In this document: piece after piece, positions 1 to 24,000 of the stretch
How the letters are laid out: each line of letters starts with the position of its first letter
Position numbering within the stretch: position 1 is the stretch's first letter
DNA from: Clostridiales bacterium UBA6114
GTDB taxonomy: Bacteria; Bacillota; Clostridia; Oscillospirales; Butyricicoccaceae
Length of the DNA: 24,000 nucleotides
Assembly (NCBI GenBank): GCA_002423435.1
Contig: DIWE01000009.1
Span: 133,161-157,160 of the forward strand
Direction of reading: 5' to 3'
The notes under the pieces: model-generated
What the model saw: only the letters and a program-made list of their open reading frames with translations
What the model was told of the DNA's origin: nothing
The model's database searches: none
Program-made: the position numbers and the translations under genes

Positions 1-857
1 TCGGTCTCATACGGCTTTCCGTCGATCGTCACGACCTGATTGCCGCTCCAGTAGGTCTGGGCGCCGCGCTGATACGTCACGCTTTTATCGACAACACTGT
101 TTAACTCCTGCAGAATCAGGCGGCTGTCTTCCGTTTTATAGTAATAGATCTCACCGGCGTCGGGAGAGAGAGAGACCTCGGATAAGGCATAGCTCGCCTT
201 GCGTCCGTCCTGGCCTAAGATGCTGACCTGATCGTTTTCGATCGACGTAACGGCGCAAAGCTGATAATTTACTGGGGAGTCTTCGTCCCCCGTCATCGCG
301 TTGTAAATCATCAGAGCCGCGAAATCGCGGGTCACGGCGTCGGAAAGCTGCAAGGTGTAATTTTTAAGAAAGCCCTTTTCAGACGCGAGCGTCTGGGTGT
401 TGAGCATCCAGCCGATCCCGGTTAGTCCGGCCTTGTCGGTGTCGGTCCCGGTCGCGGCAAGCAGCATTTTCGCCATCTCATAGCCGGTCAGAGCGCCGTC
501 CGGCGAAAAGGCGCCGCCGTTTCCGGAAATCACGCCCTCGTCGTAAAGCGCCGAGATATAGCCCTTTGCCCAGTGGCTGCCGATGTCCGTAAACGGAGCC
601 TTGCCGGTATAAGCTTTTACGTCCGGGGTGCCTTTTTCCATCACGTAGACCATTTTCGCAAACTCCGCCCGGGTGACGGTCTTATCGGGACGAAACGAGT
701 TGTCGGAATAGCCGCCCAGAATCCCTTTTCCGATCAGATACGAGACGGCGTCCTTATTCCGGATTTCGTTTTGATCCGTAAATGCCGCCGAGGCAAAAAC
801 GGTAAACAGCATACAAAAAAGCAGTAAAACGGACAGTTTTTTCAATAATCGCTGCAT
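1..857 (-). CDS. SLH-domain cell-surface protein, 5' part only (C-terminus lies beyond the left window edge)
   Basis: Hand translation of the minus strand from the ATG at 857-855 gives MQRLLKKLSVLLLFCMLFTVFASAAFTDQNEIRNKDAVSYLIGKGILGGYSDNSFRPDKTVTRAEFAKMVYV...FTDIGSHWAKGYISALYDEGVISGNGGAFSPDGALTGYEMAKMLL... This reads as a signal peptide followed by SLH repeats. A GGAAGGA Shine-Dalgarno lies 7 nt upstream. The ORF track omits it because its stop is outside the window. I hand-checked the frame for stops only over 661-857; the rest is inferred. Confidence 0.8.
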   Translation of the reverse strand, partial: MQRLLKKLSVLLLFCMLFTVFASAAFTDQNEIRNKDAVSYLIGKGILGGYSDNSFRPDKTVTRAEFAKMVYVMEKGTPDVKAYTGKAPFTDIGSHWAKGYISALYDEGVISGNGGAFSPDGALTGYEMAKMLLAATGTDTDKAGLTGIGWMLNTQTLASEKGFLKNYTLQLSDAVTRDFAALMIYNAMTGDEDSPVNYQLCAVTSIENDQVSILGQDGRKASYALSEVSLSPDAGEIYYYKTEDSRLILQELNSVVDKSVTYQRGAQTYWSGNQVVTIDGKPYET

Positions 858-896
858 AGTGATTTCCTTCCATTTCAGGCGGCGTTTTCTAGTTTT

Positions 897-925
897 ATCG
901 TACTCCTTATGATACAAAATATCAA
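897..925 (-). promoter_or_regulatory. Candidate sigma-A promoter of the 1-857 SLH gene (TTGATA-17 nt-TACGAT on the minus strand)
   Basis: The -35 hexamer is at 920-925 (plus-strand tatcaa) and the -10 is at 897-902 (plus-strand atcgta), with a 17-nt spacer. The -10 lies about 40 nt upstream of the ATG. Confidence 0.4.
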
Positions 926-987
926 TGTAAAAGGGCCGTTTCCCAAATATTGGCGAACACGCCCGAGGCTTTCTCCTTTAAGGGAGA

Positions 988-1016
988 GCGCCCCGCGGAC
1001 GAAAGCCGCGGGGCGC
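988..1016 (-). terminator. GC-rich hairpin downstream of the 884-aa SLH gene (probable terminator, weak U tract)
   Basis: Arm gcgccccgcgg (988-998) pairs with ccgcggggcgc (1006-1016), giving an 11-bp stem. It lies 40 nt past the stop at 1056. No clean T run follows on either strand. Confidence 0.5.
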
Positions 1017-1055
1017 CCTTGATCCGTTGATCGGTATCTAACTTTCTAAACAGCC

Positions 1056-3710
1056 TTAATCTTCTTCAACGTCTGGCATTGTCGCACTGGAGTCGATGGC
1101 TATGAAGAGGAGGTCGTGCGAGCTGTCTCTATCCGTCGCATAGTAGCAGTTGCTGGCGCCGTCAGCATCGGAGGACGAGATCTTCGGATAGCCGGAGCCG
1201 GTCTCGCCCTTTCCTGCGTCACGGTCGACATAGATCGTTACCGTGTCTTCGGTGATGTTGTAGATCGTGCCCTGGATGGTGACCTTGGATGAGGACTTGT
1301 TGTACGACTGGATGTCGCCATACAATCCACCGTAAGCGTCAGTCGTAGTAGTATCCGCATCCCAGATGTCCTTGATGGTTCCGTCGGCTTTCAGGGTAAA
1401 CTTAACGAAATCTTTCTTCTTGACACCGTTCACAGCGGATGTCTCTTCTTCTATGAGATAGCTCTTGGATTCGCCGTTAACCCACATGGTGTATTTGACG
1501 TAATCCTCGTCGGTGGAGGAATTATGGCCCTTCATCGGGTCGCTGGTCAGGAAGCCGAAGTACAGGTCGGAGCCCGTGCCTCTCTGCGCCGGGAGATCAT
1601 CTGTATCGCTGAGAATGACGGCGCCCTTGATATAGCTGAAGCCGCCGCTTCTCTTGTAGGCGAAGGATGAAAGGTCGTCGCTTAAATCAAAGTCTTTGTC
1701 GAAGTCGCCCGCGCCGTAAATCTTCCATTCCGGCGTAGCTCCATCCTCACTAACACGATAGAAGACAACCGCGTCGTCGGCCAGCAGGTAGCTGCCGTTA
1801 TGGTTTTCGGCTGTATTGGAAACGGTGAAGATATCGCTGTCTTCACTATACTCAATATCCGCACTCGTCGTGTAGTTCGGGATATCCTGGCTCAGCAGGA
1901 TCGTTCCGTTGCTCTTGATGCTGTAAGCAAAAAGCTTTCCAACAACCGGCGTGGTCGCTGTAACTGCATATTCCCCTGTTGGAACCGTTACGATTTTGTC
2001 TAACTCAACTTCTTCAAGTTCGCCGTCGACATAAACTTCCGAATCCTTATTGAGCTCGTAGACAACAGGATCGTCCTCGCCCGGAATCAACACTTCGACG
2101 TTGGCTTCCTTTTTGCCTGCGCCGGAGCCGGTCTCGTTGGTTGCCGACAAGACATAAGCGTAATTGCCCGAGCCCGCGATGCCCTCGCCCTCAACGAGCG
2201 CAGCGATCCAGTATTTGCCGTCTAAGAAGACGGTGTAGGTGTCTCCGGTCTCAACGTCCTGCTCGGCTTCGTTAAGATCTTGAACATCGCTAACCGAGAG
2301 GCTCTTGCTGCCGCTGACGCCGCTGATATAGATCGTGGTCTCGGCTTCGGAGCTCACGCCTTCGATCTCGCCGGAAACGGATTCCGCTTTGGTGAGATAG
2401 TAGACGTCGTCGTCGGTGTTGGCTTCGTCCTGCCAGTAGAAGACATAATCGCCTTCCTCGATGCCGTCCGCGAAGACAACGGTTTCATCGTCGTCGTTTA
2501 AGAATTCCACGCCGCCCTCGCCGAAGCTGATGGACTGGGAATCCATGGAGTCGACATAGCTGAAGGTGCGCGCGGTGACAAAGCCGTAGTCGAGCTCGCC
2601 GTCGCCGTCAAAATCAACTATCGTGATCGGGTTGCCGCTGTTGATGTCGAGATAGGTGTCAACCCAATCCGACACGTCGCCGCTGATTTCCTCGCCGTTA
2701 CTGTCATAATTGTAGTAAAGTGTGAAATCGCTGGCTAAATCACGGCTCTTGCTGTTGAATTTGATCTGTTCATCAGGGGTAGCGCCGTTGTCGATATCGC
2801 CAAGGGTCATCGTGTAAACGTCGCTGTCCTCCGTCGGAACAATGTCGTAAACGACTTTATCGCCGTTTGTTTTGACCTTGTAGACAACGTTGACTTCCTG
2901 TCCAATATAAGTTCTGTCGGTTTCAAACTCATACGTGTAGTCGCTGTCATTATCGAGTTGGACGGTGTCCTCTTCGATATCGCCGTACATGTTGAAGCCG
3001 TCGGCCGCGGTCAGGATGCCTTCCTGCTCCTCAAGGGAGAAGTACTTCCTGCCGACCGTAGCGAGATAAGCGTCGCCGTCGGAATTCAGGTTTGTATACT
3101 CGCCGTCGCGGAGAACGACAGTCGCGGTATAAATGGTGTTGTAGAAGAGGATCGCCGAGTCCTCACGGGGAGCGTCGGACGAAACGTCGGCGTTGTAGTC
3201 GTCGAACAGGTTGTTCTCGAAAGCCAGCGACATCGTGGAGATGAGCCACTGGTCGCCGACCAGGTTCGCTTTGGTTGCGTCATAGCCGATAACGGTTAAG
3301 AGCATTTTCGCGAGCTGAGCGCCCGTCAGTTTGCCTTCGGGATTAAACTTGCCGCCGCCCACGCCGGCAATAATGCCGTTTAAGTAGCAGTAGTTAATGT
3401 AGCCTCTGGCCCAATGACTGGTGGACACGTCGGTAAAGGGGTTGGCTGCGTTGACATAATTCGACGAGCCTTCGTCCTTGCCGGTTTTTAACACATACAG
3501 CATCTTCGCGGCCTCGGCGCGGGTGATGGTCTGTGTCGGGCCGAAAGAGCCGTCGGGATAGCCCTTCATAATTCCGAGAGCGTAGATCATGTTGACCTGA
3601 TTCTGAGCGTCGATGCTCGAATCATCCGTGAAAACGGTAGCTCCCGCCATCATTGTGAACGCAAACGCGAACACAAGGGCCAATGCGAGTACTTTTTTCA
3701 AAGTATGCAT
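1056..3710 (-). CDS. S-layer-type surface protein, 884 aa, with N-terminal signal peptide and SLH repeats, then an acidic beta-rich body
   Basis: The ORF-track protein starts MHTLKKVLALALVFAFAFTMMAGA (signal peptide). SLH repeats follow: FTDDSSIDAQNQVNMIYALGIMKGYPDGSFGPTQTITRAEAAKMLYV and FTDVSTSHWARGYINYCYLNGIIAGVGGGKFNPEGKLTGAQLAKMLL, plus a degenerate third. AGGAGGA lies 7 nt before the ATG at 3710. The rest is D/E/S/T-rich and Cys-poor, as in S-layer proteins. Confidence 0.9.
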   Translation of the reverse strand: MHTLKKVLALALVFAFAFTMMAGATVFTDDSSIDAQNQVNMIYALGIMKGYPDGSFGPTQTITRAEAAKMLYVLKTGKDEGSSNYVNAANPFTDVSTSHWARGYINYCYLNGIIAGVGGGKFNPEGKLTGAQLAKMLLTVIGYDATKANLVGDQWLISTMSLAFENNLFDDYNADVSSDAPREDSAILFYNTIYTATVVLRDGEYTNLNSDGDAYLATVGRKYFSLEEQEGILTAADGFNMYGDIEEDTVQLDNDSDYTYEFETDRTYIGQEVNVVYKVKTNGDKVVYDIVPTEDSDVYTMTLGDIDNGATPDEQIKFNSKSRDLASDFTLYYNYDSNGEEISGDVSDWVDTYLDINSGNPITIVDFDGDGELDYGFVTARTFSYVDSMDSQSISFGEGGVEFLNDDDETVVFADGIEEGDYVFYWQDEANTDDDVYYLTKAESVSGEIEGVSSEAETTIYISGVSGSKSLSVSDVQDLNEAEQDVETGDTYTVFLDGKYWIAALVEGEGIAGSGNYAYVLSATNETGSGAGKKEANVEVLIPGEDDPVVYELNKDSEVYVDGELEEVELDKIVTVPTGEYAVTATTPVVGKLFAYSIKSNGTILLSQDIPNYTTSADIEYSEDSDIFTVSNTAENHNGSYLLADDAVVFYRVSEDGATPEWKIYGAGDFDKDFDLSDDLSSFAYKRSGGFSYIKGAVILSDTDDLPAQRGTGSDLYFGFLTSDPMKGHNSSTDEDYVKYTMWVNGESKSYLIEEETSAVNGVKKKDFVKFTLKADGTIKDIWDADTTTTDAYGGLYGDIQSYNKSSSKVTIQGTIYNITEDTVTIYVDRDAGKGETGSGYPKISSSDADGASNCYYATDRDSSHDLLFIAIDSSATMPDVEED

Positions 3711-3756
3711 GGATTTTCCTCCTTAACAATTTTGGGTATAAACCCTGACATTGTGA

Positions 3757-3785
3757 ATCATACCGTTTTATGGCAGGAGAGTCAA
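3757..3785 (-). promoter_or_regulatory. Candidate sigma-A promoter of the 884-aa SLH gene (TTGACT-17 nt-TATGAT)
   Basis: The minus strand reads TTGACT (plus 3780-3785), then a 17-nt spacer, then TATGAT (plus 3757-3762). The -10 lies about 45 nt upstream of the ATG. Confidence 0.55.
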
Positions 3786-3799
3786 CCATTTCCGCTAAT

Positions 3800-3821
3800 C
3801 TGTAACATATCTGTAACATAA
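3800..3821 (-). repeat. Two tandem 11-bp units CTGTAACATAT / CTGTAACATAA, 14 nt upstream of the -35
   Basis: Read directly: the units start at 3800 and 3811, an exact 11-bp period. Confidence 0.85.
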
Positions 3822-4024
3822 GGCCGTTTTGCCCAAATATAATCCAATAAAATCCATATATATTATTATAAGGTATAATCAAAAAGCGTCTTGCAGCTTT
3901 CGCCGCGGGGCACTGCAGTCTGTAGACAAAGTAAGGTTCTTACGTTTTTTTATGCGTTGCGTTTACATACCATTTTTTCAAAAAGCCGAATCAACTGGAG
4001 AGCGCCGGCTTTGTCGACACTCAA

Positions 4025-4056
4025 AGGCGCCCCGCGGCTTTCGCCGCGGGGCGCCT
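4025..4056 (-). terminator. GC-rich hairpin downstream of the 859-aa SLH gene (probable intrinsic terminator)
   Basis: aggcgccccgcggc (4025-4038) pairs with gccgcggggcgcct (4043-4056), a 14-bp stem. The loop reads GAAA on the minus strand, and the minus strand continues TTTGAG. It lies 30 nt past the stop at 4086. Confidence 0.6.
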
Positions 4057-4085
4057 GGTCAGAGTTACCCGGATATTTGGTTTAT

Positions 4086-6665
4086 TTAAGCCAATGTTTC
4101 GGGAAGCGTTGCGCTGGAGTCGACAACGATGAAGAGCAGGTCGGACGGATGGTCCTTATCGGTCACGTAGTAGCAGTTGCTGTTGGTGGCGGCGTCGGAG
4201 GAGGAGATCTTCGGATATCCGGATCCGGTTTCGCCAGTTGTCTCATCGTAATCGACGTACAGTGTAACCGTGTCTTCGGTGATGTTGTAGATGCGCCCGC
4301 TGATGGTGATCTTGGAAGTGGTCTTGTTGTAGGCCTGGATATCGCCGACATTGCCCGCGTTCGCGTCGTCGCTTGCGGTGTTGGCATTCCAGATGTCCTT
4401 AATGCTTCCGTCAGCTTTCAGGGTGAAGGCGACAAACGCCTGCTTTCCGGCTACCGCGCTGTTCGTATCTTTATCTGTGTAGGTCTTCAGCTCGCCGTTT
4501 ACCCAGACGGTGTATCTGACGTAATCTTCGTCCGCGGAGGAGTCATGGCCTACCATCGGATTGCCGGTCAGGAAGCCGAAGTACGTGTCGGAAGCGGCTC
4601 CGCTCTGCTCAGCGAGATCCTGGTCGTCGTCGATGATGGCGGCTTTAATATAATTGAATCCGCCGACAGATTTGTAGGAGAATGCGCACAGGCTGGCGTT
4701 GGCATTGAAGTTCTCGTCGAAGTCGCCCGCGCCGTAAATCTTCCAGGTGTTGCCGGTGGTGTTGTAGAACACAACCGCGTCGTCCGCCAGGAGGTAGCTG
4801 CCGTTGGCGGCTCCCGCTCCGGATACCGTGAAGATGTCGCTGTCGCTGTCATATTTGATTTTCGCGCCGGTCGTGTAGTTCGTCAAATCCTGGGTCAGCA
4901 GGATCGTGCCGTCGCTCTTGATGCTGTAGGCAAACAGTTTGCCGGCAACCTGATTGGTGATGTCGCCGAGCGTGACCTTCACGAGATCGCCGTTCGCGTC
5001 AACGTATTTGGAATCCTTATTGAGCTCGTAGACGATAGGATCGTCTTCGCCCGGAATCATGACTTCGACCTTGGCCGCCGTTTTGCCTGCGCCGGAGCCG
5101 GTCTCATTGTCAGCGGATTTCACGTAAGCGTAGTTGCCCGAGCCCGCAACGCCGTCCTCTTCGGAGAGCGCCGCGATCCAGTACTTGCCGTCTAAGAAGA
5201 GGGTGTAGGTATCGCCGATTTCCGGAGCGGCCTGGCTGGCTTCGTCGAGATCATTGGTGGCGGTGTTGACCGCAAGCTCCTTGCTGCCGCTTACGTCGCT
5301 GATGTAGACTGTGGTCTCGGCCGACGAGCTGTGACCCTCGATTGCGCCGGAAACGGAGTCGGCTTTCGCGAGATAGTAGTTGTCGTCGGCTAAATCCTTG
5401 TAATAGAAGACATAGTCGCCTTCTTCAATGCCTTCGGCGAAAACAACGGTGTCGCCGTCGTCATTTAAGAACTTTTTGCCGCCTTCGCCGAAGCTGATGG
5501 ACTTGGAGTCCATGGAGCCTACATAGCTGAAGGTGCGCTCTGTAATAAATCCGTAGTCAACCGTGCCGTTTCCGTCGGCGTCGATCAGGCTTACGGGATT
5601 GCCGCTCTTAAGGTCAAGATTTGCGGTGATAAAGGCATTGAGGTCTCCGCCGTTTGCCAGGGCGTCACCGTAGTTCTTGTACAGCTTAAAGCTGTTGTCG
5701 AGCGTATAGTTCTTGTTGTTGAACTTGACCTGGTTGGCGTTTGTGCCATGATCAATATCGCCGAGAGTCAGGCCATAGACCTTGCTGTCGCCTGTCGGGA
5801 CGATGTCATAGACTGTCTTGTCGCCGTTTGCGGCAACCTTGTAGACGACCTTGACATCCTGGCCGACAAACTCTCTTCCGCCTTCAAAATCATAATCGTG
5901 ATTGTTGATCGTGATGGTGTCCTCGTCGACGTTTCCGTCGGTCATGTCAAAATCGTTCGCGGCGGTCAGAACGCCCTCTTCCTCTTCAAGGCCGAAGTAT
6001 TTCTTTCCGGCTGTCGCAAGATAGGCGTCGCCGTCGGAGTTAAGGTTCGTGTATTCGCCGTCGCGATAGACAACGGTCGGGGTATAAACGGCGTTGTAGA
6101 AAAGAATCGCCGCATCCTGGCGGGGAGCCGCGGCCGACACGTCGACCGTATAGTCGTCAAACAGGTTGTTTTCAAACGCGAGCGACATTGTGGAGATCAT
6201 CCACTGTGTTCCCACGAGGCCTGCCCTGTTTGCGTCGTAGCCGATCACGGTCAGGATCATCTTCGCAAGCTGCGCGCCCGTTACCGAACCCTCGGGATCA
6301 AACTTGCCGTTACCCACACCGGCGATAATGCCGTTTAAGTAGCAGTAGTTTATGTATCCTCTGGCCCAGTGGCCGGAATACACGTCGCTAAAGGGATTGG
6401 CAGCGTTCTTATAATTGTCCGAGCCAACGTCTTTGCCGTTTTTAAGAACATAGATCATTTTTGCGGCTTCGGCACGGGTAATCGTTTTGTCGGGTCCGAA
6501 TGAGCCATCCGGATATCCATTGACAATGCCGAGCGCAGTAATCATATTAACCTGATTCTGCGCGTCGATTTCTTCATTGTCGGTGAAAACCGTTGCGCCA
6601 GCCATCATTGTGAACGCAAAAGCGAACACAACGGAAAGTGCGAGCAGTTTTTTCAATGTGCGCAT
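4086..6665 (-). CDS. S-layer-type surface protein, paralog of 1056-3710 (859 aa from the preferred start)
   Basis: The ORF track gives 4086..6698. The internal ATG at 6665 is preceded by AGGAGGA at 7 nt and yields MRTLKKLLALSVVFAFAFTMMAGA, matching the paralog's N-terminus. The protein is collinear with the 884-aa protein over its full length, for example ...RGYINYCYLNGIIAGVG..., ...GDYVFY..., ...TGETGSGYPKISSSDA...SNCYY...DLLFI..DSSAT. Confidence 0.9.
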   Translation of the reverse strand: MRTLKKLLALSVVFAFAFTMMAGATVFTDNEEIDAQNQVNMITALGIVNGYPDGSFGPDKTITRAEAAKMIYVLKNGKDVGSDNYKNAANPFSDVYSGHWARGYINYCYLNGIIAGVGNGKFDPEGSVTGAQLAKMILTVIGYDANRAGLVGTQWMISTMSLAFENNLFDDYTVDVSAAAPRQDAAILFYNAVYTPTVVYRDGEYTNLNSDGDAYLATAGKKYFGLEEEEGVLTAANDFDMTDGNVDEDTITINNHDYDFEGGREFVGQDVKVVYKVAANGDKTVYDIVPTGDSKVYGLTLGDIDHGTNANQVKFNNKNYTLDNSFKLYKNYGDALANGGDLNAFITANLDLKSGNPVSLIDADGNGTVDYGFITERTFSYVGSMDSKSISFGEGGKKFLNDDGDTVVFAEGIEEGDYVFYYKDLADDNYYLAKADSVSGAIEGHSSSAETTVYISDVSGSKELAVNTATNDLDEASQAAPEIGDTYTLFLDGKYWIAALSEEDGVAGSGNYAYVKSADNETGSGAGKTAAKVEVMIPGEDDPIVYELNKDSKYVDANGDLVKVTLGDITNQVAGKLFAYSIKSDGTILLTQDLTNYTTGAKIKYDSDSDIFTVSGAGAANGSYLLADDAVVFYNTTGNTWKIYGAGDFDENFNANASLCAFSYKSVGGFNYIKAAIIDDDQDLAEQSGAASDTYFGFLTGNPMVGHDSSADEDYVRYTVWVNGELKTYTDKDTNSAVAGKQAFVAFTLKADGSIKDIWNANTASDDANAGNVGDIQAYNKTTSKITISGRIYNITEDTVTLYVDYDETTGETGSGYPKISSSDAATNSNCYYVTDKDHPSDLLFIVVDSSATLPETLA

Positions 6666-6713
6666 AGATTTTCCTCCTAAAAAATTTTGGGTACGCACCC
6701 TTGGTCTGTTTGT

Positions 6714-6742
6714 ATGTTATCTGGTTTGCCCATCGCAGTCAA
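6714..6742 (-). promoter_or_regulatory. Candidate sigma-A promoter of the 859-aa SLH gene (TTGACT-17 nt-TAACAT)
   Basis: The minus strand reads TTGACT (plus 6737-6742), then a 17-nt spacer, then TAACAT (plus 6714-6719). The -35 hexamer and spacer length are the same as in the paralog's promoter. Confidence 0.5.
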
Positions 6743-6756
6743 TGCTTCGAAACGAT

Positions 6757-6800
6757 CTGTAATGCAACTGTAATTCGGCTGTAATGTAACCGTAATGTGT
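6757..6800 (-). repeat. Four tandem 11-bp units (CTGTAATGCAA, CTGTAATTCGG, CTGTAATGTAA, CCGTAATGTGT), 14 nt upstream of the -35
   Basis: Read directly: the units start at 6757, 6768, 6779 and 6790, an exact 11-bp period. Confidence 0.85.
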
Positions 6801-7014
6801 TTTTTTCTGCCATATTCCCCGCATCGGGAGCAAAAAACAACGGCTCGTTTTTGAAAACGGCAAGCCGCCGGATTCCTTTCTTTTGCCGCAAAGTTTGATA
6901 AAACGGAGGCTCCCGGGATTTTTAGCTATTTGAACGGGCCTTGCTTTCCTTCTTCTTTTTCCTCGTCAAAAAGCTTTGTGCGCCGCACTTTGCGGTTCAT
7001 CATTTTTGATTTTG

Positions 7015-7036
7015 TTGTAACACAATTGTAACAGGC
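7015..7036. repeat. Two further tandem 11-bp units TTGTAACACAA / TTGTAACAGGC in the long divergent intergenic region
   Basis: Read directly: the units start at 7015 and 7026. They share the TGTAAC core and the 11-bp period with the repeats at 3800 and 6757. Confidence 0.8.
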
Positions 7037-7282
7037 GGGAACGAAAAACTTCCTTTCTTTGGAAAAGGCGTCGTTTTTCTTATTTCTGGTGCGCGGATTG
7101 GTTTTGAGGCTTGTTTTTTATACGATGGGGGAAACGAAAAATGTCTTAAAACTGTTTCAACAAGTCACATAAGCATTTTTTTGTCATATCATGTAATTAG
7201 GAGACGGATAACAAAGATTGCAAACGCGATAAATATTTGTTGTTTTTAAAATTTTTTTAATACAAACTTTAAGGTGAGATAT

Positions 7283-7783
7283 ATGAGTTATTATTTTGAC
7301 CCCTTTGCGGCGCAGAGCAATTCATGCTGCCATAGAAGGCGGGATGATAGGGCTGTGCAGTTAAACGCCTCGACCGGAGGCGCCGGACCGCTTCCGATTA
7401 TCACCACGCTGCTTGCCGCCCCGATCCCCGTCGTGGACGTGACGATTGATACAAAAGGCATGAGAAATCCGGCCGTGCTACTGAACTTTACAAGCATCAT
7501 CAGCCTGCCGGTCGGTATTTCCGTCACTTTGAACTTTGAGCTTAAAAGGAGCTTAGACGGCGGCCCGCCCGTAAGCGTCGGCTCGACCTATACTTTCTCG
7601 ACGCTGGTAACGGTGCTCGAAGCGGAATCTTTCGGCTTCCAGTTCTTTGACAACAACCTCGCGCCGGGCTTATACACGTATTCCGTACAGCTTTCCACAA
7701 ATTCCATCATCGATATCACCCCAGGGGTCACAGTGACAAACGCAACGCTGAGCGCCCTGGCCGTTGACAACGGTATCGTATAA
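7283..7783 (+). CDS. Small beta-rich protein of unknown function with an N-terminal CC motif (possibly DUF4489-like)
   Basis: The ORF track starts at the GTG at 7274. I prefer the ATG at 7283, which has AAGGTGAG 4-5 nt upstream. There is no signal peptide. The N-terminus reads MSYYFDPFAAQSNSCCHRRRDD, followed by alternating hydrophobic/polar beta-strand patterns (VLLNFTSIISLPVGISVTLNFELK, TYTFSTLVTV, FGFQFFD, GLYTYSVQL, VTVTNATLSALAV). The family assignment is from memory only. Confidence 0.6.
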   Translation: MSYYFDPFAAQSNSCCHRRRDDRAVQLNASTGGAGPLPIITTLLAAPIPVVDVTIDTKGMRNPAVLLNFTSIISLPVGISVTLNFELKRSLDGGPPVSVGSTYTFSTLVTVLEAESFGFQFFDNNLAPGLYTYSVQLSTNSIIDITPGVTVTNATLSALAVDNGIV

Positions 7784-7834
7784 CATCCGCGTCTTTTGCA
7801 GTCAGCAAGTCAATACGGTTCCGTCCGGACCGGC

Positions 7835-7870
7835 AAACCCGTCGAATAACCCTCCGGTTATTCGGGGTTT
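7835..7870 (+). terminator. Probable intrinsic terminator of the 7283-7783 gene
   Basis: aaacccgtcgaataacc ... ggttattcggggttt forms a stem with one bulge, followed by TTTG. Confidence 0.55.
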
Positions 7871-8137
7871 GTACATACGTTCTCCGTATAACCGTAATGT
7901 AAAAGTCTCCCCGAAAGACCGTTATCTCCCACCGTCCTGCCTGCCTTCGAAAAGGACAGGCATAAAACTGTCGGGCCGGATGCAGGCCGATATCTACTCT
8001 GCTGCGTTTACCTGAAGACAAAAAAAGTCGAGCCGAAGCCCAACTCTTTTGAAAAACATGCAAATTACTTTATACGTAATGGCGATATTATCCAGAATTA
8101 AACAATTTATTTATTTTTCATTATTTGCCAGCACTAC

Positions 8138-8166
8138 TTGTATTTGTCTAATAATTAAATTATAAT
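8138..8166 (+). promoter_or_regulatory. Candidate sigma-A promoter of the agr-type operon (TTGTAT-17 nt-TATAAT)
   Basis: The -35 is at 8138-8143 and a perfect TATAAT is at 8161-8166, inside a very AT-rich stretch. The -10 lies about 30 nt upstream of the ATG at 8198. Confidence 0.45.
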
Positions 8167-8197
8167 TACTTATAAATCATAAAATAGGAGATATTCT

Positions 8198-8764
8198 ATG
8201 ATTGAAACAGTATTAGCCGCTTTAATTGCGGCCAAAATCAGGCATTACAAGTTAAAATATCTGTTTATGTCATGGACGTTTTATCCGATTATTGCTTTGG
8301 AAATCATCCTTTTCTTTTTTCAGACGAATACCTTTCTCAGCAATTATTTTTATGTGATTCATTTCGACCGGTACTTTAAAACCATATACATACTGGCTTA
8401 TCTGGTTCCTATATTATATTTTAAGTTGTACAAGCAGTCGCTGATCGGCTCGGCCTCCGTATTAGTCGGTACTTTGCTGAATCGGTTTGTTATGGCACAA
8501 AACGGCGGCAAAATGCCGGTTTTTCCGACTCTCTCCTATCTGACCGGTTATCTGAAACCCTATACCTTCGATCAGGTGAACGACTACCACGTTTTCGGGG
8601 ACGCTTCGTCCCGTTTCAAGATTCTGTGCGATTACATAGACGTCGGTTATAATGTAATGAGTCCGGGGGATCTTTTTATCCATTTCTTTGTATTTATCAT
8701 TATCTATAGTGCAATTAAAGAGCTGAACTTAAAACACAAAGAGGAATTCGTAAAGGCAGGATGA
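8198..8764 (+). CDS. Polytopic membrane protein, 188 aa, first gene of the agr-type operon (possibly DUF5317-like)
   Basis: AGGAG lies 7 nt upstream of the ATG. Several hydrophobic helices are visible. The motif LLNRFVMAQNGGKMPVF resembles, from memory, the N-G-G-x-M-P-V signature of DUF5317 membrane proteins. The stop overlaps the next start (ATGA at 8761-8764). Confidence 0.7.
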   Translation: MIETVLAALIAAKIRHYKLKYLFMSWTFYPIIALEIILFFFQTNTFLSNYFYVIHFDRYFKTIYILAYLVPILYFKLYKQSLIGSASVLVGTLLNRFVMAQNGGKMPVFPTLSYLTGYLKPYTFDQVNDYHVFGDASSRFKILCDYIDVGYNVMSPGDLFIHFFVFIIIYSAIKELNLKHKEEFVKAG

Positions 8765-9267
8765 CGTTTATGCGGCTTTCATGGATCGAGTTATTGATCA
8801 AGGGAATACCCGAAGGTTTTTTGGACATCCTTGCCATGTACATATTAACAAAAGCGAAATTCAATAAAAAGAAGTATTTAAGCATCAGCTTGATCTTTAT
8901 TGTTTTAACTTATTTCGTCCGCATGCTTCCGATCAATTACGGAGTAAACGCGATGATATCCATACTGGTCTTTATGCTTCTTTTTGTCCTGTTCTGCGAC
9001 GTGGAATTCCCGTTGGCCATCAAGTCGGCGATTACTGTAATGATATTCCTGTTTGTGAGCGAGGGCTTCAACGCCCTTCTGCTCATAGCCTTATACGGCC
9101 GGGACCAGACACAAGCCCTGTTTGATTCGCCTTTGGCCAAAAGTATTTACGGGATTCCGTCCACTCTGTTTTTTGCCTTGTTCATTTTAATAACCTATCT
9201 GGTTTTATCCAGATTAAATAAAATCAGGAAGGATACCGATGGAGAAGCTGGCAAAGAAAATCGCTGA
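8761..9267 (+). CDS. Polytopic membrane protein, 168 aa, unknown function
   Basis: The protein has 4-5 predicted TM helices (ILAMYILT, ISLIFIVLTYFV, MISILVFMLLFVLF, ITVMIFLFVSEGFNALLLIALYG, IPSTLFFALFILITYLVL). The start ATG is at 8761 (alternative 8770). Its 3' end overlaps agrB by 29 nt. Confidence 0.7.
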   Translation: MTFMRLSWIELLIKGIPEGFLDILAMYILTKAKFNKKKYLSISLIFIVLTYFVRMLPINYGVNAMISILVFMLLFVLFCDVEFPLAIKSAITVMIFLFVSEGFNALLLIALYGRDQTQALFDSPLAKSIYGIPSTLFFALFILITYLVLSRLNKIRKDTDGEAGKENR

Positions 9268-9901
9268 CAGGCTGTCAGCGGAGCTTAACCTTGACGACGA
9301 GAAAAAGGAAGTCGTCGCTTACGGCATGGCTGCGCTTTTTCAGACGTTTTCAACCCTTTTGTTCGTCTTTCTTCTGGGACTTATTGCCGGTATTCCCGTT
9401 GAGGCACTGATTATCTGTCTTTGTGTCAGCCTCCTCCGAAAATACAGCGGAGGCGCCCATTTGAGCTCAATGGGATTATGCACGTTTTGCGGGGTGCTCT
9501 ACAGCGTAACGGCTGCCGCCGTCGGCAGATATCTCTTGTCCCCCCTTCTTACCGTCCGTTCAATGTCTGTGATACTGGCTGTTACATTTGCGGTATCTTT
9601 TTTTATCATCTATAAATTTGCCCCTGTCGCAAATCCGAAAAAGCCGATTAAAACTGAAAGAAAAATCCGGCGGATGAGGCGCGGCTCGTTCACCGTACTG
9701 TTTTCCTACCTTGCGGTTTCGCTTCTATTTCTTTTTTTTGGACAGGCATATCCGCCTTTTCTCGGTTATGGGATCAGTCTTGTGTTTGGAACCATATGGC
9801 AGATTATGACTTTGACAACCTTTGGCGCGCAACTCTTTCACATATTGGACCAGGTTGGCAACAAGATTTGTGACAATGGAATGGAGGTGAAGAAAAGATG
9901 A
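9239..9901 (+). CDS. agrB: AgrB-family membrane peptidase (AgrD-processing enzyme)
   Basis: The sequence LRKYSGGAHLSSMGLC contains a His and a Cys 7 residues later, the same spacing as the catalytic H77/C84 of S. aureus AgrB (..GAHAPSSFWC..). A basic stretch APVANPKKPIKTERKIRRMRR matches the AgrB APxxxxKKPI...K/R-rich loop. AGGAAGGA lies 5 nt upstream of the ATG. Confidence 0.9.
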   Translation: MEKLAKKIADRLSAELNLDDEKKEVVAYGMAALFQTFSTLLFVFLLGLIAGIPVEALIICLCVSLLRKYSGGAHLSSMGLCTFCGVLYSVTAAAVGRYLLSPLLTVRSMSVILAVTFAVSFFIIYKFAPVANPKKPIKTERKIRRMRRGSFTVLFSYLAVSLLFLFFGQAYPPFLGYGISLVFGTIWQIMTLTTFGAQLFHILDQVGNKICDNGMEVKKR

Positions 9902-10023
9902 AAAAACAGCTTTTGGCGTTGGCAGCATCCTTCGCTGCACTGTTCGCTTCAATGGTGGCGACTTCCGCGTGTTGCTTCTTTGCATATCAGCCGGAAGAGC
10001 CAAAGTGCCTGAGAGACGAATAA
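9898..10023 (+). CDS. agrD: AgrD-type autoinducing-peptide precursor, 41 aa (not in the ORF track)
   Basis: Hand translation gives MKKQLLALAASFAALFASMVATSACCFFAYQPEEPKCLRDE*. The ATG at 9898 overlaps the agrB stop (ATGA). The peptide has an amphipathic leader, a Cys-containing core and an acidic P-E-E-P-K-x-L tail. The tail is nearly identical to the C. perfringens AgrD tail as I remember it (..TSACLWFTHQPEEPKSLRDE). Confidence 0.85.
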   Translation: MKKQLLALAASFAALFASMVATSACCFFAYQPEEPKCLRDE

Positions 10024-10068
10024 TTTCAAATAATCAGGAGGAAGATTTCCTCCTGATTATTTGAAATT
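10022..10068 (+). terminator. Perfect 21-bp inverted repeat immediately after agrD (probable terminator or attenuator)
   Basis: aatttcaaataatcaggagga (10022-10042) is the exact reverse complement of tcctcctgattatttgaaatt (10048-10068), with a 5-nt loop. A U-rich tail attactttgcttttt follows. Confidence 0.65.
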
Positions 10069-10094
10069 ATTACTTTGCTTTTTGGGGGAATACG

Positions 10095-11762
10095 ATGTTT
10101 GATCAAAATAAAAACATCAACTCAAAAATTCAGCAAATTACGAATGCCGTTAAGATATTTTCCCTGCTTTTTTCCGGAATAGCGTGTTCACAATATTACT
10201 TTAATAATCAAAATTTGTATCAATTTCTTTCTTATAATTTTTTTCAGTATTTCGCAATCATCATTATTTGCTTTACCATATACCTTTGCATGGATCTTCT
10301 CGACAAAATAGCAAAAAAAAACGTCTATTTCGTCAAATGGGTTCATGCCGGAGTATTGCTTGCAGTCACTTTCTTATCCGTTATGCTGACCGGCGGCTAT
10401 GAAAGCAACTACAAATTCCTTTTTTTATTTGTGGTCATCTCGGCAAGCATGGAATTAGGCATGGGCGCGGGGCTTATCATTTCCGGATTTTCTTCCCTGA
10501 TTGTTCTCGGAGTGGATCTTATATATGCCCCGTCGAATCTCATAAACACCTGTTTTCAGAGCGATATCGTCCTTGCCTCCGCTTTTTTGATCATCGCGTT
10601 AACCCTCGGGTTTTACGTAATAACGGAAAACGAACATATTGATTATCTGAAAAATCTGGCAAACATCGACGGCCTCACCGGTCTATACAACCATCGATAT
10701 TTTTATGAGCGCCTGAACATATTGACGCAGGAATGCAAAAAAAACGGCTCGTTTCTTTCCCTGCTTTTCATTGACATCGATTATTTTAAATATTTTAACG
10801 ATGTCAACGGCCATCAAAAAGGCGACGACGCCTTAATCGTCCTGGCGGACATGTTCAGGAGCCTTGTACGTGAAAATGACGTTGCCGCGCGGTACGGAGG
10901 GGAAGAATTCGCAGTCATCCTGCCGGATACTCCGGAAGAACAAGCCCTTGAAATCGCCGAGAACTTAAGGCGGGCCGTACAGGAGCACGTATTTTCCGGC
11001 CAGGAATACCTGCCGAACCGGAATCTGACGATCTCCGTCGGAGTTTCCGTCTTTCCGACAAAGGCAAAGACGGAGGACGAAATCATCCGCTATGCCGACG
11101 AAGCGCTATACCGGGCGAAAAGCTTCCGGAAAAACAGGGTGGAATCCTATTCCTCGATTCTTGACGATCTCAAAAACGACGTCGACGGAAACGACAAGGA
11201 AATTGTCGCTTCCATCAAGACCCTGATCGCCGTTATCAACGCGAAAGATAAATATACCTTCCGCCACGTCGAACGGGTTGTGACATTTTGCAGCCTGATG
11301 GCGGATGTGTTGAAGCTCGGCGACGCCTCAAGGAAAAATTTTATTTACAGCGCTTATATGCATGATATCGGGAAGATCAATATTCCCGAAGAGATTTTAA
11401 TGAAAACCACTCCGCTTACTCCCGGCGAATGGGAAATACTGAAAAAGCACCCTGAAAACGCGGCGGAAATGGTAAAAAACGTGATGCTACTGAAGGATGT
11501 TGTCCCCATCATTCTGCAGCATCACGAGAGGTATGACGGAACCGGATACCCGAACCGCTTAAAGGGGGAGGAAATTACATATCTCGCAAGAGTATTGAAC
11601 GTAGTCGACAGCTTCGACGCCATGACCTCCTTCCGTCCGTATCAAAAGAGAAAATCCTACTCGGAGGCATTCGACGAGCTGATCCGGTGCAGCGGCACAC
11701 AGTTTGATCCCGAAATCGTAAAGGTATTTATTGCGACGATTAAGGACGACACCTTCCAATAA
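10095..11762 (+). CDS. Membrane-bound bifunctional c-di-GMP enzyme: N-terminal 5-6 TM module + GGDEF diguanylate cyclase + HD-GYP phosphodiesterase
   Basis: The first ~175 aa are hydrophobic helices. GGDEF-domain markers are DGLTGLYNHRYF, the RxxD I-site plus active site in RENDVAARYGGEEF, and RYADEALYRAK. HD-GYP markers are FRHVERV, YMHDIGK and HHERYDGTGYP. Confidence 0.9.
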   Translation: MFDQNKNINSKIQQITNAVKIFSLLFSGIACSQYYFNNQNLYQFLSYNFFQYFAIIIICFTIYLCMDLLDKIAKKNVYFVKWVHAGVLLAVTFLSVMLTGGYESNYKFLFLFVVISASMELGMGAGLIISGFSSLIVLGVDLIYAPSNLINTCFQSDIVLASAFLIIALTLGFYVITENEHIDYLKNLANIDGLTGLYNHRYFYERLNILTQECKKNGSFLSLLFIDIDYFKYFNDVNGHQKGDDALIVLADMFRSLVRENDVAARYGGEEFAVILPDTPEEQALEIAENLRRAVQEHVFSGQEYLPNRNLTISVGVSVFPTKAKTEDEIIRYADEALYRAKSFRKNRVESYSSILDDLKNDVDGNDKEIVASIKTLIAVINAKDKYTFRHVERVVTFCSLMADVLKLGDASRKNFIYSAYMHDIGKINIPEEILMKTTPLTPGEWEILKKHPENAAEMVKNVMLLKDVVPIILQHHERYDGTGYPNRLKGEEITYLARVLNVVDSFDAMTSFRPYQKRKSYSEAFDELIRCSGTQFDPEIVKVFIATIKDDTFQ

Positions 11763-11801
11763 TCTGTGTTTTGCCATAACCCGTCGGTATATCCGCTTTT
11801 T

Positions 11802-11841
11802 GATCAGCCGCGACGTTAACCGCCGCGGCTGATCTTTTTTT
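11802..11841 (+). terminator. Intrinsic terminator after the GGDEF/HD-GYP gene
   Basis: gatcagccgcg (11802-11812) pairs with cgcggctgatc (11824-11834), followed by TTTTTTT. Confidence 0.8.
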
Positions 11842-11845
11842 GTTC

Positions 11846-12607
11846 TCAGCGCATATAAGCGCCGCCGTTTACGTCGATTGTCGCGCCGGTTATAAAATTT
11901 GCCTCCTCGCTTGCAAGGAATACCGCCGCATATCCGATATCCTCAAGTGTGCCGATGCGATGCATGGGAGTCCGCTCGAGGGTGATATCCATCCGCTTCG
12001 GGTCGGCCAGAAGGATGCCCGCCAGCTGCTCGGTCATATGTACCCCGGGCGCGATTGAATTGACGGTGATGCCGTCGAGGGCTACGGATCGGGCAAGCGT
12101 TTTCGTAAAAGCCAGCTGCGCGCCCTTGGTCGAGGCGTAATGCACCTGCCCGAACAGCGCGCCCTGCTCGGCGACGAGCGAGGAAATCTGTATGATTCTC
12201 CCCCATTTTTGCCTGCGCATCATCGGGAGAGCATATTTCGAGCAAAGAAAACAGCCGGTGATGTTCGTTTTAAGCACGCGCTCCCACTCGGCAAGATCGA
12301 TCGTATCGATATCCAGATTGCTGTTGATGCCCGCGTTGTTCACCAGGATGTCCAGCCTGCCGAACGCGGCTTCAATGGCCTCGAACAGCCGGATAACATC
12401 CGCCTCGTTCCCGACATCGCCCTGCGCGACGACGGCACGGCGGCCCATGGCGCGAATTTCCTCAGCCACCCTTTCGGCTTCCTCTTTGGACTTTACGTAA
12501 CTTACCATGATATCGGCGCCGGCCTCCGCGAGGCATTTTGCAATTCCCATGCCAAGCCCGCGCGACGCGCCGGTGACAAATGCGGTTTTCCCGGTTAAAT
12601 TGAACAT
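11846..12607 (-). CDS. SDR-family oxidoreductase (FabG / sugar dehydrogenase-like)
   Basis: The protein carries TGASRGLG (Rossmann TGxxxGxG), NNAG, and the catalytic S...YASTK motif. AGGAGGAG lies upstream of the ATG at 12607. Confidence 0.85.
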   Translation of the reverse strand: MFNLTGKTAFVTGASRGLGMGIAKCLAEAGADIMVSYVKSKEEAERVAEEIRAMGRRAVVAQGDVGNEADVIRLFEAIEAAFGRLDILVNNAGINSNLDIDTIDLAEWERVLKTNITGCFLCSKYALPMMRRQKWGRIIQISSLVAEQGALFGQVHYASTKGAQLAFTKTLARSVALDGITVNSIAPGVHMTEQLAGILLADPKRMDITLERTPMHRIGTLEDIGYAAVFLASEEANFITGATIDVNGGAYMR

Positions 12608-23900: not shown

Positions 23901-24000
23901 TCGTGCATAAAGGCCTCGTGATCGAATAGGACGTCTCGTTTTGCGGCAGCCTCGCGCTTATTTCGTAAGTTCCCGCCTGATAAAACACAAGCGTGATTTT
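20956..24000 (-). CDS. Large surface protein, N-terminus outside the window: two DUF4430-like modules, a prenyltransferase/alpha-alpha-toroid-like repeat region, and three C-terminal SLH repeats
   Basis: The frame stays open to position 24000 (KITL precedes the GTG the ORF track uses), and there is no signal peptide at that GTG. DUF4430-like signatures are GWMYLVDGQSPSVGMGSYVLSGGEDIVVYY and SGWLYSVNGRFPQAGAGSYTLGDGDAVRWIY. Toroid-like repeats are QNLDGGYSL, TAMALQAL and ENGGFLSEGVNNSESAAQVVIAL. The SLH repeats are at the C-terminus (PWAVEAI..., FTDVPESVWYLKEV..., ASPWASEGVGAAY...). Its stop lies only 13 nt from the convergent spoVB stop. Confidence 0.8.
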   Translation of the reverse strand, partial: KITLVFYQAGTYEISARLPQNETSYSITRPLCTIIIPQGEADSKTVGVRVEGIYANVVDERDFSAQTTGDRLLTVSDAVKQALEQNGKAYAEAGGYFSSIGGEAEKTFGGYDGWMYLVDGQSPSVGMGSYVLSGGEDIVVYYGDFSTLYPKTALSRQADGSFRLCFTADGYDENWNPTVLPITGAEVTWDGSALPGLTDENGAISIAAESATSDAHSLQLRKNGAYDEGTGLYLPCIVRLPSDYTVGLYRADLRSAPADVPQEISVSSNTAYAGIRVAKGAALPGITATVADGGLSLLIPQGTVATSDDAGWDGEIALPRVEDNVALSGKTVDKTISAGAPGATLHFNKPVRLLIPGGAQKTIAYLDQAGNPVEIDTVLSGDNLSSAEAGLAAADKAEGKAETGGDTAVWTKHLTTFVSYSTAGGEEPDGGDGGAGTDRDTITLSVTGYNGQSLLSATTMELQSGDTPLSVLRRCGLSITVSSGYVKTIEGLSEFDHGGKSGWLYSVNGRFPQAGAGSYTLGDGDAVRWIYTVNGGADVGAPSVSETLAPVLSGEPEEYSEALSKVLTGFKKKSELSEWEIYALYAAGETAEQGQLDLIIEDIREQGGNIRKPTDLAKYVLTIGMAGLDPTDAGGYDLVEKLYRNRNLTMQGVNGPVFALIALNSGYYGVPQDALWTKDKLLSYILAAQNLDGGYSLEKGEKSDTDLTAMALQALAPYRGREDAKAAIDRALSFLSENQRENGGFLSEGVNNSESAAQVVIALTALDIDPLSDPAFIKGSNTALSALYSFMLGDNTFSHEEGGGSDEMATSQAALALAASSRYYAGKPPLYEIRPYYYDDLGNASPWAVEAIISATGDGIVNGTNGCFKPLNSVTRAEFSAMLVRMLGLEALSGGELPFTDVPESVWYLKEVRSAYENGVVTGFGGSFYPDKTITREEMAVMLARALRLESAQSGSAPRDLGAASPWASEGVGAAYASGLMTGSGGAFNPKGTVTREMAATVCARAFAMEKQAV

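Follow-up and report, generated by a model that had tools for sequence, protein, structure and literature searches.

A membrane-bound GGDEF/HD-GYP protein encoded directly after agrD as a candidate receptor for a clostridial cyclic peptide signal

Introduction

In the agrBDCA locus of Staphylococcus aureus, AgrB makes a thiolactone peptide from AgrD, and a polytopic receptor with six transmembrane (TM) helices is encoded beside agrD, with an HPK10 kinase as its output and the LytTR regulator AgrA as its partner. Clostridia use agr-type peptide signalling to control toxins, sporulation and biofilm, and for the majority of their agrBD loci, the so-called 'orphans', the receptor is unknown or partly known. 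In this work we analysed an agr-type locus at positions 8198-11762 of a 24,000-nucleotide stretch of DNA from Clostridiales bacterium UBA6114 (contig DIWE01000009.1, positions 133,161 to 157,160), referred to below as the window. Its predicted scheme of peptide production is that of S. aureus, and a polytopic 6-TM candidate receptor is again encoded beside agrD, but the output consists of a GGDEF and an HD-GYP domain with no AgrA/LytTR partner, and AgrB is less variable in the clade studied here. Comparison with related loci led us to the view that this protein of 555 amino acids (aa) is probably the cognate receptor of the peptide, unrelated to AgrC, and that it would convert the peptide level into turnover of cyclic di-GMP (c-di-GMP).

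The closest named relative of the window AgrB is that of Clostridium perfringens (38% identity). In this species the autoinducing peptide is the 5-mer thiolactone CLWFT (PMC12312760; PMC12828898), and the operon CPE1563-CPE1562-agrB-agrD is transcribed as one unit, with agrD situated between CPE1561 and CPE1560 (PMC2706048). The window has the same order of the four production genes, two upstream membrane genes included (PMC2706048), and the same AgrD pattern, ..SAC-xxxx-(Y/H)QPEEPKxLRDE. Its TM module is ~36% identical to the C. perfringens counterpart. The two systems differ in the ring (CLWFT against a predicted CCFFA) and in the host, which for the window is an uncultured, high-GC member of the Clostridia known from a metagenome. 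The published C. perfringens model has VirS as the receptor and mentions neither the downstream gene nor c-di-GMP (PMC7492741, PMC12828898), and neither c-di-GMP nor diguanylate cyclases are mentioned in a 2025 review of the species (PMC12828898). Li and McClane considered additional peptide receptors possible and reported an unexplained band of ~75 kDa in a peptide pulldown (PMC7492741).

Quorum signals meet c-di-GMP enzymes in other systems. RpfR of Burkholderia cenocepacia, a PAS-GGDEF-EAL protein, binds the fatty-acid signal BDSF (Burkholderia diffusible signal factor) directly and turns over c-di-GMP with no two-component step, and in Xanthomonas the diffusible signal factor (DSF) acts through the kinase RpfC on the HD-GYP response regulator RpfG (PMC13220807). 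As in RpfR, the sensor and the c-di-GMP turnover domains of the window system are in one polypeptide that is genetically linked to the signal synthase; as with RpfC/RpfG, quorum sensing would end in an HD-GYP phosphodiesterase. RpfR, however, is a cytoplasmic, PAS-sensing protein of Gram-negative hosts with a fatty-acid signal and EAL-type degradation, whereas the window system has a (predicted) ribosomal cyclic peptide signal, an integral-membrane sensor module and an HD-GYP domain, and RpfC/RpfG depends on phosphotransfer from a separate sensor kinase. The AgrA regulon of C. difficile includes c-di-GMP enzymes, but the control is by transcription (PMC3754575). The system described here combines two kinds that are already known, agr quorum sensing and receptors that couple a signal directly to c-di-GMP. 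We found no publication linking agrBD to an adjacent GGDEF/HD-GYP gene; subscription journals were largely outside the search, and an earlier mention is possible.

Results and discussion

The agr module of the window

The features of the module, all on the + strand, are the following.

8198-8764, + strand: DUF5317 membrane protein of 188 aa, first gene of the module (PF17248, E 9e-24)
8761-9267, + strand: small polytopic membrane protein of 168 aa (ORF2), without a Pfam or NCBIfam family
9239-9901, + strand: AgrB, the membrane peptidase that cyclises AgrD (PF04647, E 1e-41; score 142 bits, cut-off 23)
9898-10023, + strand: AgrD precursor of 41 aa, MKKQLLALAASFAALFASMVATSACCFFAYQPEEPKCLRDE (TIGR04223, E 5e-12, 45.6 bits against a cut-off of 19)
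9970-9984, + strand: predicted autoinducer ring C-C-F-F-A, a 5-residue thiolactone, from alignment with the C. perfringens peptide CLWFT
10022-10068, + strand: terminator-like hairpin between agrD and the sensor gene, a perfect 20-bp stem followed by a U-rich tail
10095-11762, + strand: sensor enzyme of 555 aa, 6-TM module plus GGDEF plus HD-GYP (open reading frame, Pfam, AlphaFold2)
10095-10649, + strand: 6-TM sensor module, aa 1-185 (six helices in AlphaFold2; 76-sequence alignment)
10191-10394, + strand: hypervariable 'specificity' segment, aa ~33-100, covering the end of TM1, outer loop 1, TM2 and TM3 (comparison of sister loci)
10659-11138, + strand: GGDEF diguanylate cyclase domain, aa 189-348, with I-site REND and GGEEF (PF00990, E 2e-46)
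11220-11717, + strand: HD-GYP c-di-GMP phosphodiesterase domain, aa 376-541 (PF13487, HD_5, E 3e-40)

The original prediction had described a compact co-directional set of two small membrane proteins, AgrB, AgrD, a hairpin and a 555-aa protein, with neither AgrC nor AgrA in the 24 kb, and the gene inventory bears out both statements. The five open reading frames (ORFs) overlap or nearly abut, ORF2 overlapping both of its neighbours; the one larger gap, of 71 nt, separates agrD from the sensor gene. Where a canonical agrBDCA locus would carry an AgrC-type (HPK10) kinase, the gene after agrD encodes the GGDEF plus HD-GYP protein, and among the genes of the window we found neither a histidine kinase nor an AgrA-type LytTR regulator. 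When S. aureus AgrA (query sequence entered by hand) was compared by phmmer with the locus set L001-L084, the sole match was one OmpR-type regulator. This apparent AgrA, in L081, belongs to an ordinary OmpR/HAMP two-component pair and not to an AgrCA system.

A sensor gene directly follows agrD throughout the clade

Conserved linkage of the peptide-production genes to the GGDEF/HD-GYP gene had been named beforehand as the key test. An alignment of 20 AgrB relatives was used to scan one genome per GTDB species, which gave 80 loci with AgrB proteins 31-51% identical to that of the window, and the ORFs of these loci were searched with the window proteins. Three of the 80 end before any downstream gene is visible, leaving 77 informative loci. 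We found a gene with the TM module directly after agrD, on the same strand, in 75 of these 77, with a gap of 24-120 nt in most. It is of the GGDEF/HD-GYP type in 68 loci (64 intact genes of ~550-580 aa, one split, three cut by a contig end) and of a kinase type in seven. The surveyed clade takes in Clostridium spp. including C. perfringens, Oscillospiraceae, Peptococcaceae, Limiplasma, Holtiella, Fonticella and Tepidibacter. The adjacency of agrD and the sensor gene is far beyond chance.

The original prediction had left open whether the adjacency extends to agr loci of the C. perfringens type; it is present in C. perfringens itself (L044), where a 567-aa GGDEF plus HD_5 protein starts 48 nt after the AgrD that carries CLWFT. 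By position, this sensor gene corresponds to CPE1560. The predicted mass of its product, roughly 65 kDa, makes the ~75 kDa pulldown band of Li and McClane no more than a lead.

The sensor gene also travels with the rest of the module. C. peptidivorans and Clostridium sp. BSD9I1 are 80-93% identical at the nucleotide level over a stretch that opens ~220 nt before DUF5317 and closes at the sensor stop codon, while the DNA outside this five-gene unit is unalignable on either side. Because the shared identity stops at the unit boundaries, the five-gene module, sensor included, is placed in differing genomic surroundings. Three metagenomic relatives, retrieved with the TM module alone as query, likewise have ORF2, AgrB, AgrD and then the sensor, with DUF5317 first where the contig reaches and with flanks unlike those of the window. 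In the window the agr locus has a GC content of 37-47% against 50-60% in the surrounding DNA, a contrast which suggests that the module was gained by transfer.

The two exceptions to the linkage are L070 and L073. In C. brassicae (L070:2862-3647) a bare agrB-agrD pair lacks the sensor, ORF2 and DUF5317 and may be a second, satellite agr pair; in an Alkaliphilus metagenome-assembled genome (MAG) only an HD-GYP remnant is left after agrD (L073:2642-2917). Elsewhere, a weak second AgrB-like ORF (L050:6090-6665) and a second AgrD-like ORF (L079:7173-7310) lie just upstream of the main module, which hints at tandem agr pairs in some genomes.

The same module can carry a kinase output

In the seven remaining loci the protein after agrD consists of the TM module fused to PAS-HisKA-HATPase_c (615-642 aa), without GGDEF or HD-GYP. 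The hosts are C. prolinivorans, C. aciditolerans, C. thailandense, C. drakei, Clostridium sp. OS1-26 and two MAGs. The genes, assigned by Pfam, are these.

L033:8895-10742, kinase-type gene
L049:8846-10705, kinase-type gene
L053:8857-10716, kinase-type gene
L061:8856-10709, kinase-type gene
L065:6061-7920, kinase-type gene
L078:6391-8256, kinase-type gene
L084:8813-10741, kinase-type gene

Their TM modules share 50-55% identity with the modules of GGDEF-type neighbours, about as much as they share among themselves. No response regulator adjoins these genes, so that the variants are orphan kinases. A shorter protein of TM module and histidine kinase (TM-HK) in Alkaliphilus metalliredigens is encoded 1.1 kb from an ORF2-AgrB-AgrD cluster. 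The module thus keeps its place by the signal genes while its output is swapped, as expected for the receptor of the signal.

CBO0336 and CBO0340 of C. botulinum, which we take to adjoin the agr loci of that species, resemble the kinase-type variants. The likeness is one of architecture and length (615 and 617 aa, 5TM-PAS-HisKA-HATPase), and the two proteins are considered candidate Spo0A kinases (PMC11210211). By analogy, the kinase-type variants could be peptide-gated Spo0A kinases.

The AgrD ring and the sensor module co-diversify

We compared three distances among the 63 full-length GGDEF-type sensors: between the four variable ring residues, between the TM modules and between the catalytic domains. 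Ring distance was correlated with TM distance when catalytic distance was controlled for (partial Mantel r 0.27, permutation p 0.0005), but not with catalytic distance when TM distance was controlled for (r -0.10, p 0.98). There are 56 distinct rings among the 63 loci. Sister loci with different rings differ by 18-38% in the TM module and by 2-5% in the catalytic domains; the clearest cases are as follows.

L077/L083: rings FWAM and WWAM, catalytic divergence 0.039, TM divergence 0.307
L020/L022: rings SWFS and TWFS, catalytic divergence 0.048, TM divergence 0.367
L015/L022: rings SWFT and TWFS, catalytic divergence 0.045, TM divergence 0.38
L040/L058: rings YWMT and LWMT, catalytic divergence 0.03, TM divergence 0.178

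Pairs with the same ring have a ratio of TM to catalytic divergence of ~1.0-1.6, apart from one near-identical pair at 2.4; L032 and L077, both FWAM, stand at 0.187 against 0.164. In sliding-window comparisons the nucleotide identity drops in a trough that runs from the ring codons of agrD to 300-400 nt into the sensor gene, with identities of 0.85-0.97 on either side. At the protein level the trough corresponds to sensor aa ~33-100. This segment is 44-65% identical in different-ring sisters, whose catalytic domains are 94-98% identical, and 84-94% identical in same-ring pairs; the median ratio of segment to catalytic divergence is 1.24 for same-ring and 2.77 for different-ring pairs (Mann-Whitney p 4e-5). 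The catalytic domains stay nearly identical where the TM module, above all its aa 33-100, diversifies together with the AgrD ring. In the S. aureus agr groups, hypervariability extends over the peptide and the N-terminal portion of the receptor membrane domain. The variability of ring and receptor beside a conserved cytoplasmic part in our clade is of a like pattern.

Both catalytic domains appear intact

All sequence motifs expected of an active enzyme are present in the window protein: DIDYFK226, the I-site REND259 and GGEEF268 in the GGDEF domain, which keeps its metal-binding aspartates, and HDIGK423 and HHERYDGTGYP476 in the HD-GYP domain. GG(D/E)EF is retained in 62 of the 63 orthologs and HD plus HHExxDGxGYP in 63 of 63. 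Such retention means that both sites are under purifying selection and that selection maintains both activities, which agrees with the original description of the two domains as apparently active and points to a bifunctional enzyme that can be switched, not to a degenerate protein.

It is highly improbable, in our estimate, that one or both catalytic domains are degenerate and that the 555-aa protein serves as a c-di-GMP receptor or scaffold. Many tandem GGDEF-phosphodiesterase proteins do have one inactive half, and L001, L002 and L014 each carry the sensor gene as two ORFs, but the motif retention just described speaks for two working sites, and the splits occur in three metagenome assemblies of ~70.

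The split genes (L001:10001-11679, L002:1304-2967, L014:7548-9265) encode either TM-GGDEF and HD or TM and GGDEF-HD as separate ORFs. They may be frameshifted pseudogenes or assembly errors.

The TM module forms its own sensor family

AlphaFold2 modelling of sensor aa 1-190 with a 22-sequence alignment gave a six-helix bundle (mean predicted local distance difference test score 82.9, predicted template modelling score 0.77), where five to six helices had been predicted from the sequence; the last predicted helix (152-189) passes straight into the GGDEF domain. The N-terminus is rich in lysine, loop 69-80 reads DKIAKKNVYFVK and loop 36-46 is uncharged. This charge distribution points to an N-in/C-in topology with three very short outer loops. 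In the 76-sequence alignment, S104, K107, D141, N151, F154 and D157, all in the second half of the module, are invariant or nearly so, and they are predicted to sit on the outer face.

Sensor domains of AgrC and VirS had been proposed for comparison with the module. The comparison with AgrC gave no detectable similarity: hhalign of the 76-sequence TM alignment against residues 1-252 of AgrC-I (sequence entered by hand) returned a probability of 0.2%. There was no relative among the PDB sequences, and Foldseek gave no significant match, the best being the TM domains of adenylyl cyclase 9 and the ImcA cyclase at E ~0.4-1. In Pfam the module has sub-threshold matches to 6TM_PilS (16 of 76 members), DUF4118 (9 of 76) and MASE1 (4 of 76). 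The PilS-like 6TM (PF25323) and MASE-type domains are likewise six-helix membrane sensors N-terminal to kinase or GGDEF outputs, but all module matches fall below the gathering score and the module is no member of these families by the Pfam standard. For 6TM_PilS, the best E among module members is 8e-6; the match of the window protein takes in almost the full length and scores 16.6 bits against a gathering threshold of 27.

The family is rare and specific. The TM module alone as query of a word-indexed protein search found six proteins of 38-47% identity, and the 76-sequence profile found 21 there, all fragments of <320 aa. An exhaustive profile search of 1.84 billion representatives gave ~90 proteins at E<1e-30; the profile also spanned the start of GGDEF, so that its total of 183,020 hits says nothing about the TM module, and only matches covering profile positions 1-190 were counted. 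The architectures found in this way were TM-GGDEF-HD-GYP, TM-PAS-HK, TM-HisKA-HATPase (~460-477 aa) and one TM-GGDEF-HD-GYP-MEDS. We conclude that the TM module is a distinct integral-membrane sensor family, probably AgrC-like in its working but not a member of the AgrC family.

The MEDS-bearing relative (P0246, 756 aa) has an extra C-terminal MEDS domain and constitutes a fourth architecture in the sensor family.

PilS senses the pilin inventory through its 6-TM domain. The weak resemblance to PilS prompts a rival explanation, in which the sensor is functionally tied to the agr module without reading the extracellular peptide: the 6-TM domain might monitor the AgrD precursor or the AgrB/ORF2/DUF5317 machinery in the membrane, or c-di-GMP might act upstream and control peptide production. 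We regard this explanation as rather unlikely. The very short outer loops of the model would require the ligand to be met in or at the membrane, and co-diversification with the ring fits intramembrane recognition of the precursor equally well. However, AgrD hardly varies in its leader and tail, whereas its ring covaries with the sensor segment, which makes the ring, the exported product, the recognised element. In the informative pairs AgrB, ORF2 and DUF5317 are less divergent than sensor aa 33-100, and the PilS similarity itself stays below the gathering score.

A candidate receptor linking peptide level to c-di-GMP

Taken together, synteny, the unit boundaries, the output swap and co-diversification are four independent comparative arguments which support the 555-aa protein as the probable cognate receptor of the peptide. 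From these data we propose the following scheme. The five genes would form one conserved, transferable quorum-sensing module, in which AgrB, probably helped by the two small membrane proteins, makes a 5-residue thiolactone from AgrD. The hydrophobic peptide would be bound by the 6-TM module at the outward-facing side of the membrane or close to it; aa ~33-100 would set the peptide specificity, and the invariant polar cluster of S104, K107, D141, N151, F154 and D157 may serve the common ring or signal transmission. With TM6 continuing as a helix into the GGDEF domain, peptide binding could tip the protein towards either its diguanylate cyclase or its HD-GYP phosphodiesterase activity, so that cell density would be written directly into the c-di-GMP level without phosphotransfer. 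A leaky hairpin would give abundant agrBD message and little receptor message. In some clostridia the same sensor module would drive an orphan PAS-HisKA kinase, acting as a peptide-sensing cassette with exchangeable outputs. The gene content, the motifs, the synteny, the domain swap, the co-diversification and the hairpin are seen in the sequences themselves, whereas we infer peptide binding, the direction of the c-di-GMP change, the topology, read-through at the terminator and what the two small proteins do.

Several points weigh against this scheme. The lack of detectable similarity between the module and the AgrC sensor or solved structures means that the TM module cannot be named a peptide receptor by homology. 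Two more distant short TM-HK relatives have no agrBD nearby within the DNA examined around them, and the I-site RxxD is retained in ~38 of the 63 orthologs only. The ring codons and the 5' end of the sensor gene are ~150 nt apart and could be replaced by one recombination tract without any coupling between them, and the pairs in the co-diversification statistics are phylogenetically non-independent. The same trough boundaries in at least four independent lineages argue against a lone recombination as the explanation. Finally, the C. perfringens peptide has an accepted receptor in VirS, which binds it and explains toxin regulation (PMC7492741).

In a further explanation, the adjacency reflects co-regulation or hitch-hiking only: the peptide would be sensed solely by an unlinked kinase of the VirS/AgrC type, and the sensor would read an unrelated membrane or envelope cue. 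VirS/VirR are needed for the toxin response in C. perfringens (PMC7492741; PMC12828898), it is accepted that clostridia have orphan agrBD loci whose receptors are encoded far away, and the kinase inventory of the window genome covers 24 kb only. We nevertheless consider this explanation distinctly unlikely. It leaves unexplained why divergence along with the ring is confined to the N-terminal half of the TM module, with the catalytic domains still 94-98% identical, why the same module occurs at the same place with a different output domain, and why the module boundaries take in the sensor gene.

The original prediction had the TM module sensing the peptide and converting it directly into a c-di-GMP change, bypassing a two-component system. 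The comparative arguments above favour its first part. For C. perfringens at least, 'bypassing' has to be read as 'in parallel', because VirS already binds the peptide (PMC7492741); where VirS-type systems exist, the sensor would act alongside them as an additional receptor.

On a broader view, we see roughly even chances that the 6-TM module is a new, AgrC-unrelated class of thiolactone receptor with exchangeable outputs. These would be GGDEF/HD-GYP, as the first c-di-GMP enzyme gated by a peptide autoinducer and the suspected second receptor for the C. perfringens peptide, or PAS-HisKA, in orphan kinases feeding Spo0A. A candidate receptor gene directly after agrD across a large clade gives a concrete candidate for the question of the orphan agr receptors. 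If the proposal is true, peptide quorum sensing and c-di-GMP are joined in a single protein, which would also be a new target for anti-virulence peptide analogues. The kinase-type variants suggest a route from the peptide signal to Spo0A, and peptide-gated orphan kinases would, if real, explain how orphan agrBD loci control clostridial sporulation. The natural receptor/peptide pairs that differ only in a segment of ~70 residues are ideally suited to specificity mapping; one is formed by L077 (C. sartagoforme, FWAM) and L083 (Clostridiaceae AF10-41, WWAM), with catalytic domains 95-98% identical.

The hairpin between agrD and the sensor gene

The window hairpin at 10022-10068 has a minimum free energy (MFE) of -32.1 kcal/mol and a z of -7.8 against shuffles. 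A stable hairpin between agrD and the sensor gene was found in 73 of 73 loci, with an MFE <= -10 kcal/mol in all and z <= -2 in 69. In a scan of positions 7700-12000, no promoter-like + strand site was found between agrD and the sensor start codon. From its structure and position, the hairpin may be a leaky terminator that sets a high ratio of peptide to receptor expression.

A separate sensor promoter between hairpin and start codon was considered and rejected, as there are 26 nt only and no + strand consensus site. An Rfam scan of the window found zero RNA families, the c-di-GMP riboswitch included.

The peptide-production genes

The production half has the hallmarks of an agr system, a PF04647 peptidase and directly after it a small AgrD with a Cys/Ser four residues ahead of the predicted cleavage site and an acidic tail. 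The C-terminal part of the window AgrD reads ...TSACCFFAYQPEEPKCLRDE. AgrD proteins of the related loci follow a pattern of a leader, (S/T)(S/A)AC, four variable hydrophobic residues and (Y/H)QPEEPKxLR(D/E)E. Aligned with the known CLWFT precursor, the window AgrD reads ..SAC-CFFA-YQPEEPKCLRDE, and because of this alignment we predict the window peptide to be cyclo-CCFFA, with putative cleavage sites at the corresponding positions.

Two adjacent Cys residues occupy the ring position in the window AgrD (9970-9975), and the thiolactone could form from either. Its tail carries a further Cys (10006-10008, PKCLRDE), at a position that is usually Cys or Ser across the family.

Genes of the DUF5317 and ORF2 families precede agrB in the same orientation both in the window and in C. 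perfringens (L044), where CPE1563 is the positional counterpart of DUF5317 and CPE1562 that of ORF2. A DUF5317 homolog is found upstream of AgrB in 56 of the 80 related loci and an ORF2 homolog directly upstream of AgrB in 76. The lone Pfam match of ORF2 is a weak one to a Peptidase_M50B-like family (19.6 bits, below the cut-off of 26).

We do not claim ORF2 as a metalloprotease, the match being sub-threshold and the sequence without HExxH. The weak match does raise the question of ORF2 helping in peptide processing or export. ORF2 is present in two copies in L054 and in three in L084.

Genes around the module

The other genes of the window encode SLH proteins, a DUF4489 protein, an SDR, a GntR, a TRAP transporter, a lactamase_B protein, an MR_MLE enzyme and a MatE protein. 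The module is flanked (window 1-7783 and 20956-23988) by very large SLH-domain surface proteins of 884 aa, 870 aa and, in a partial gene, >1000 aa, and the DUF4489 protein, at 7274-7783, also flanks the module.

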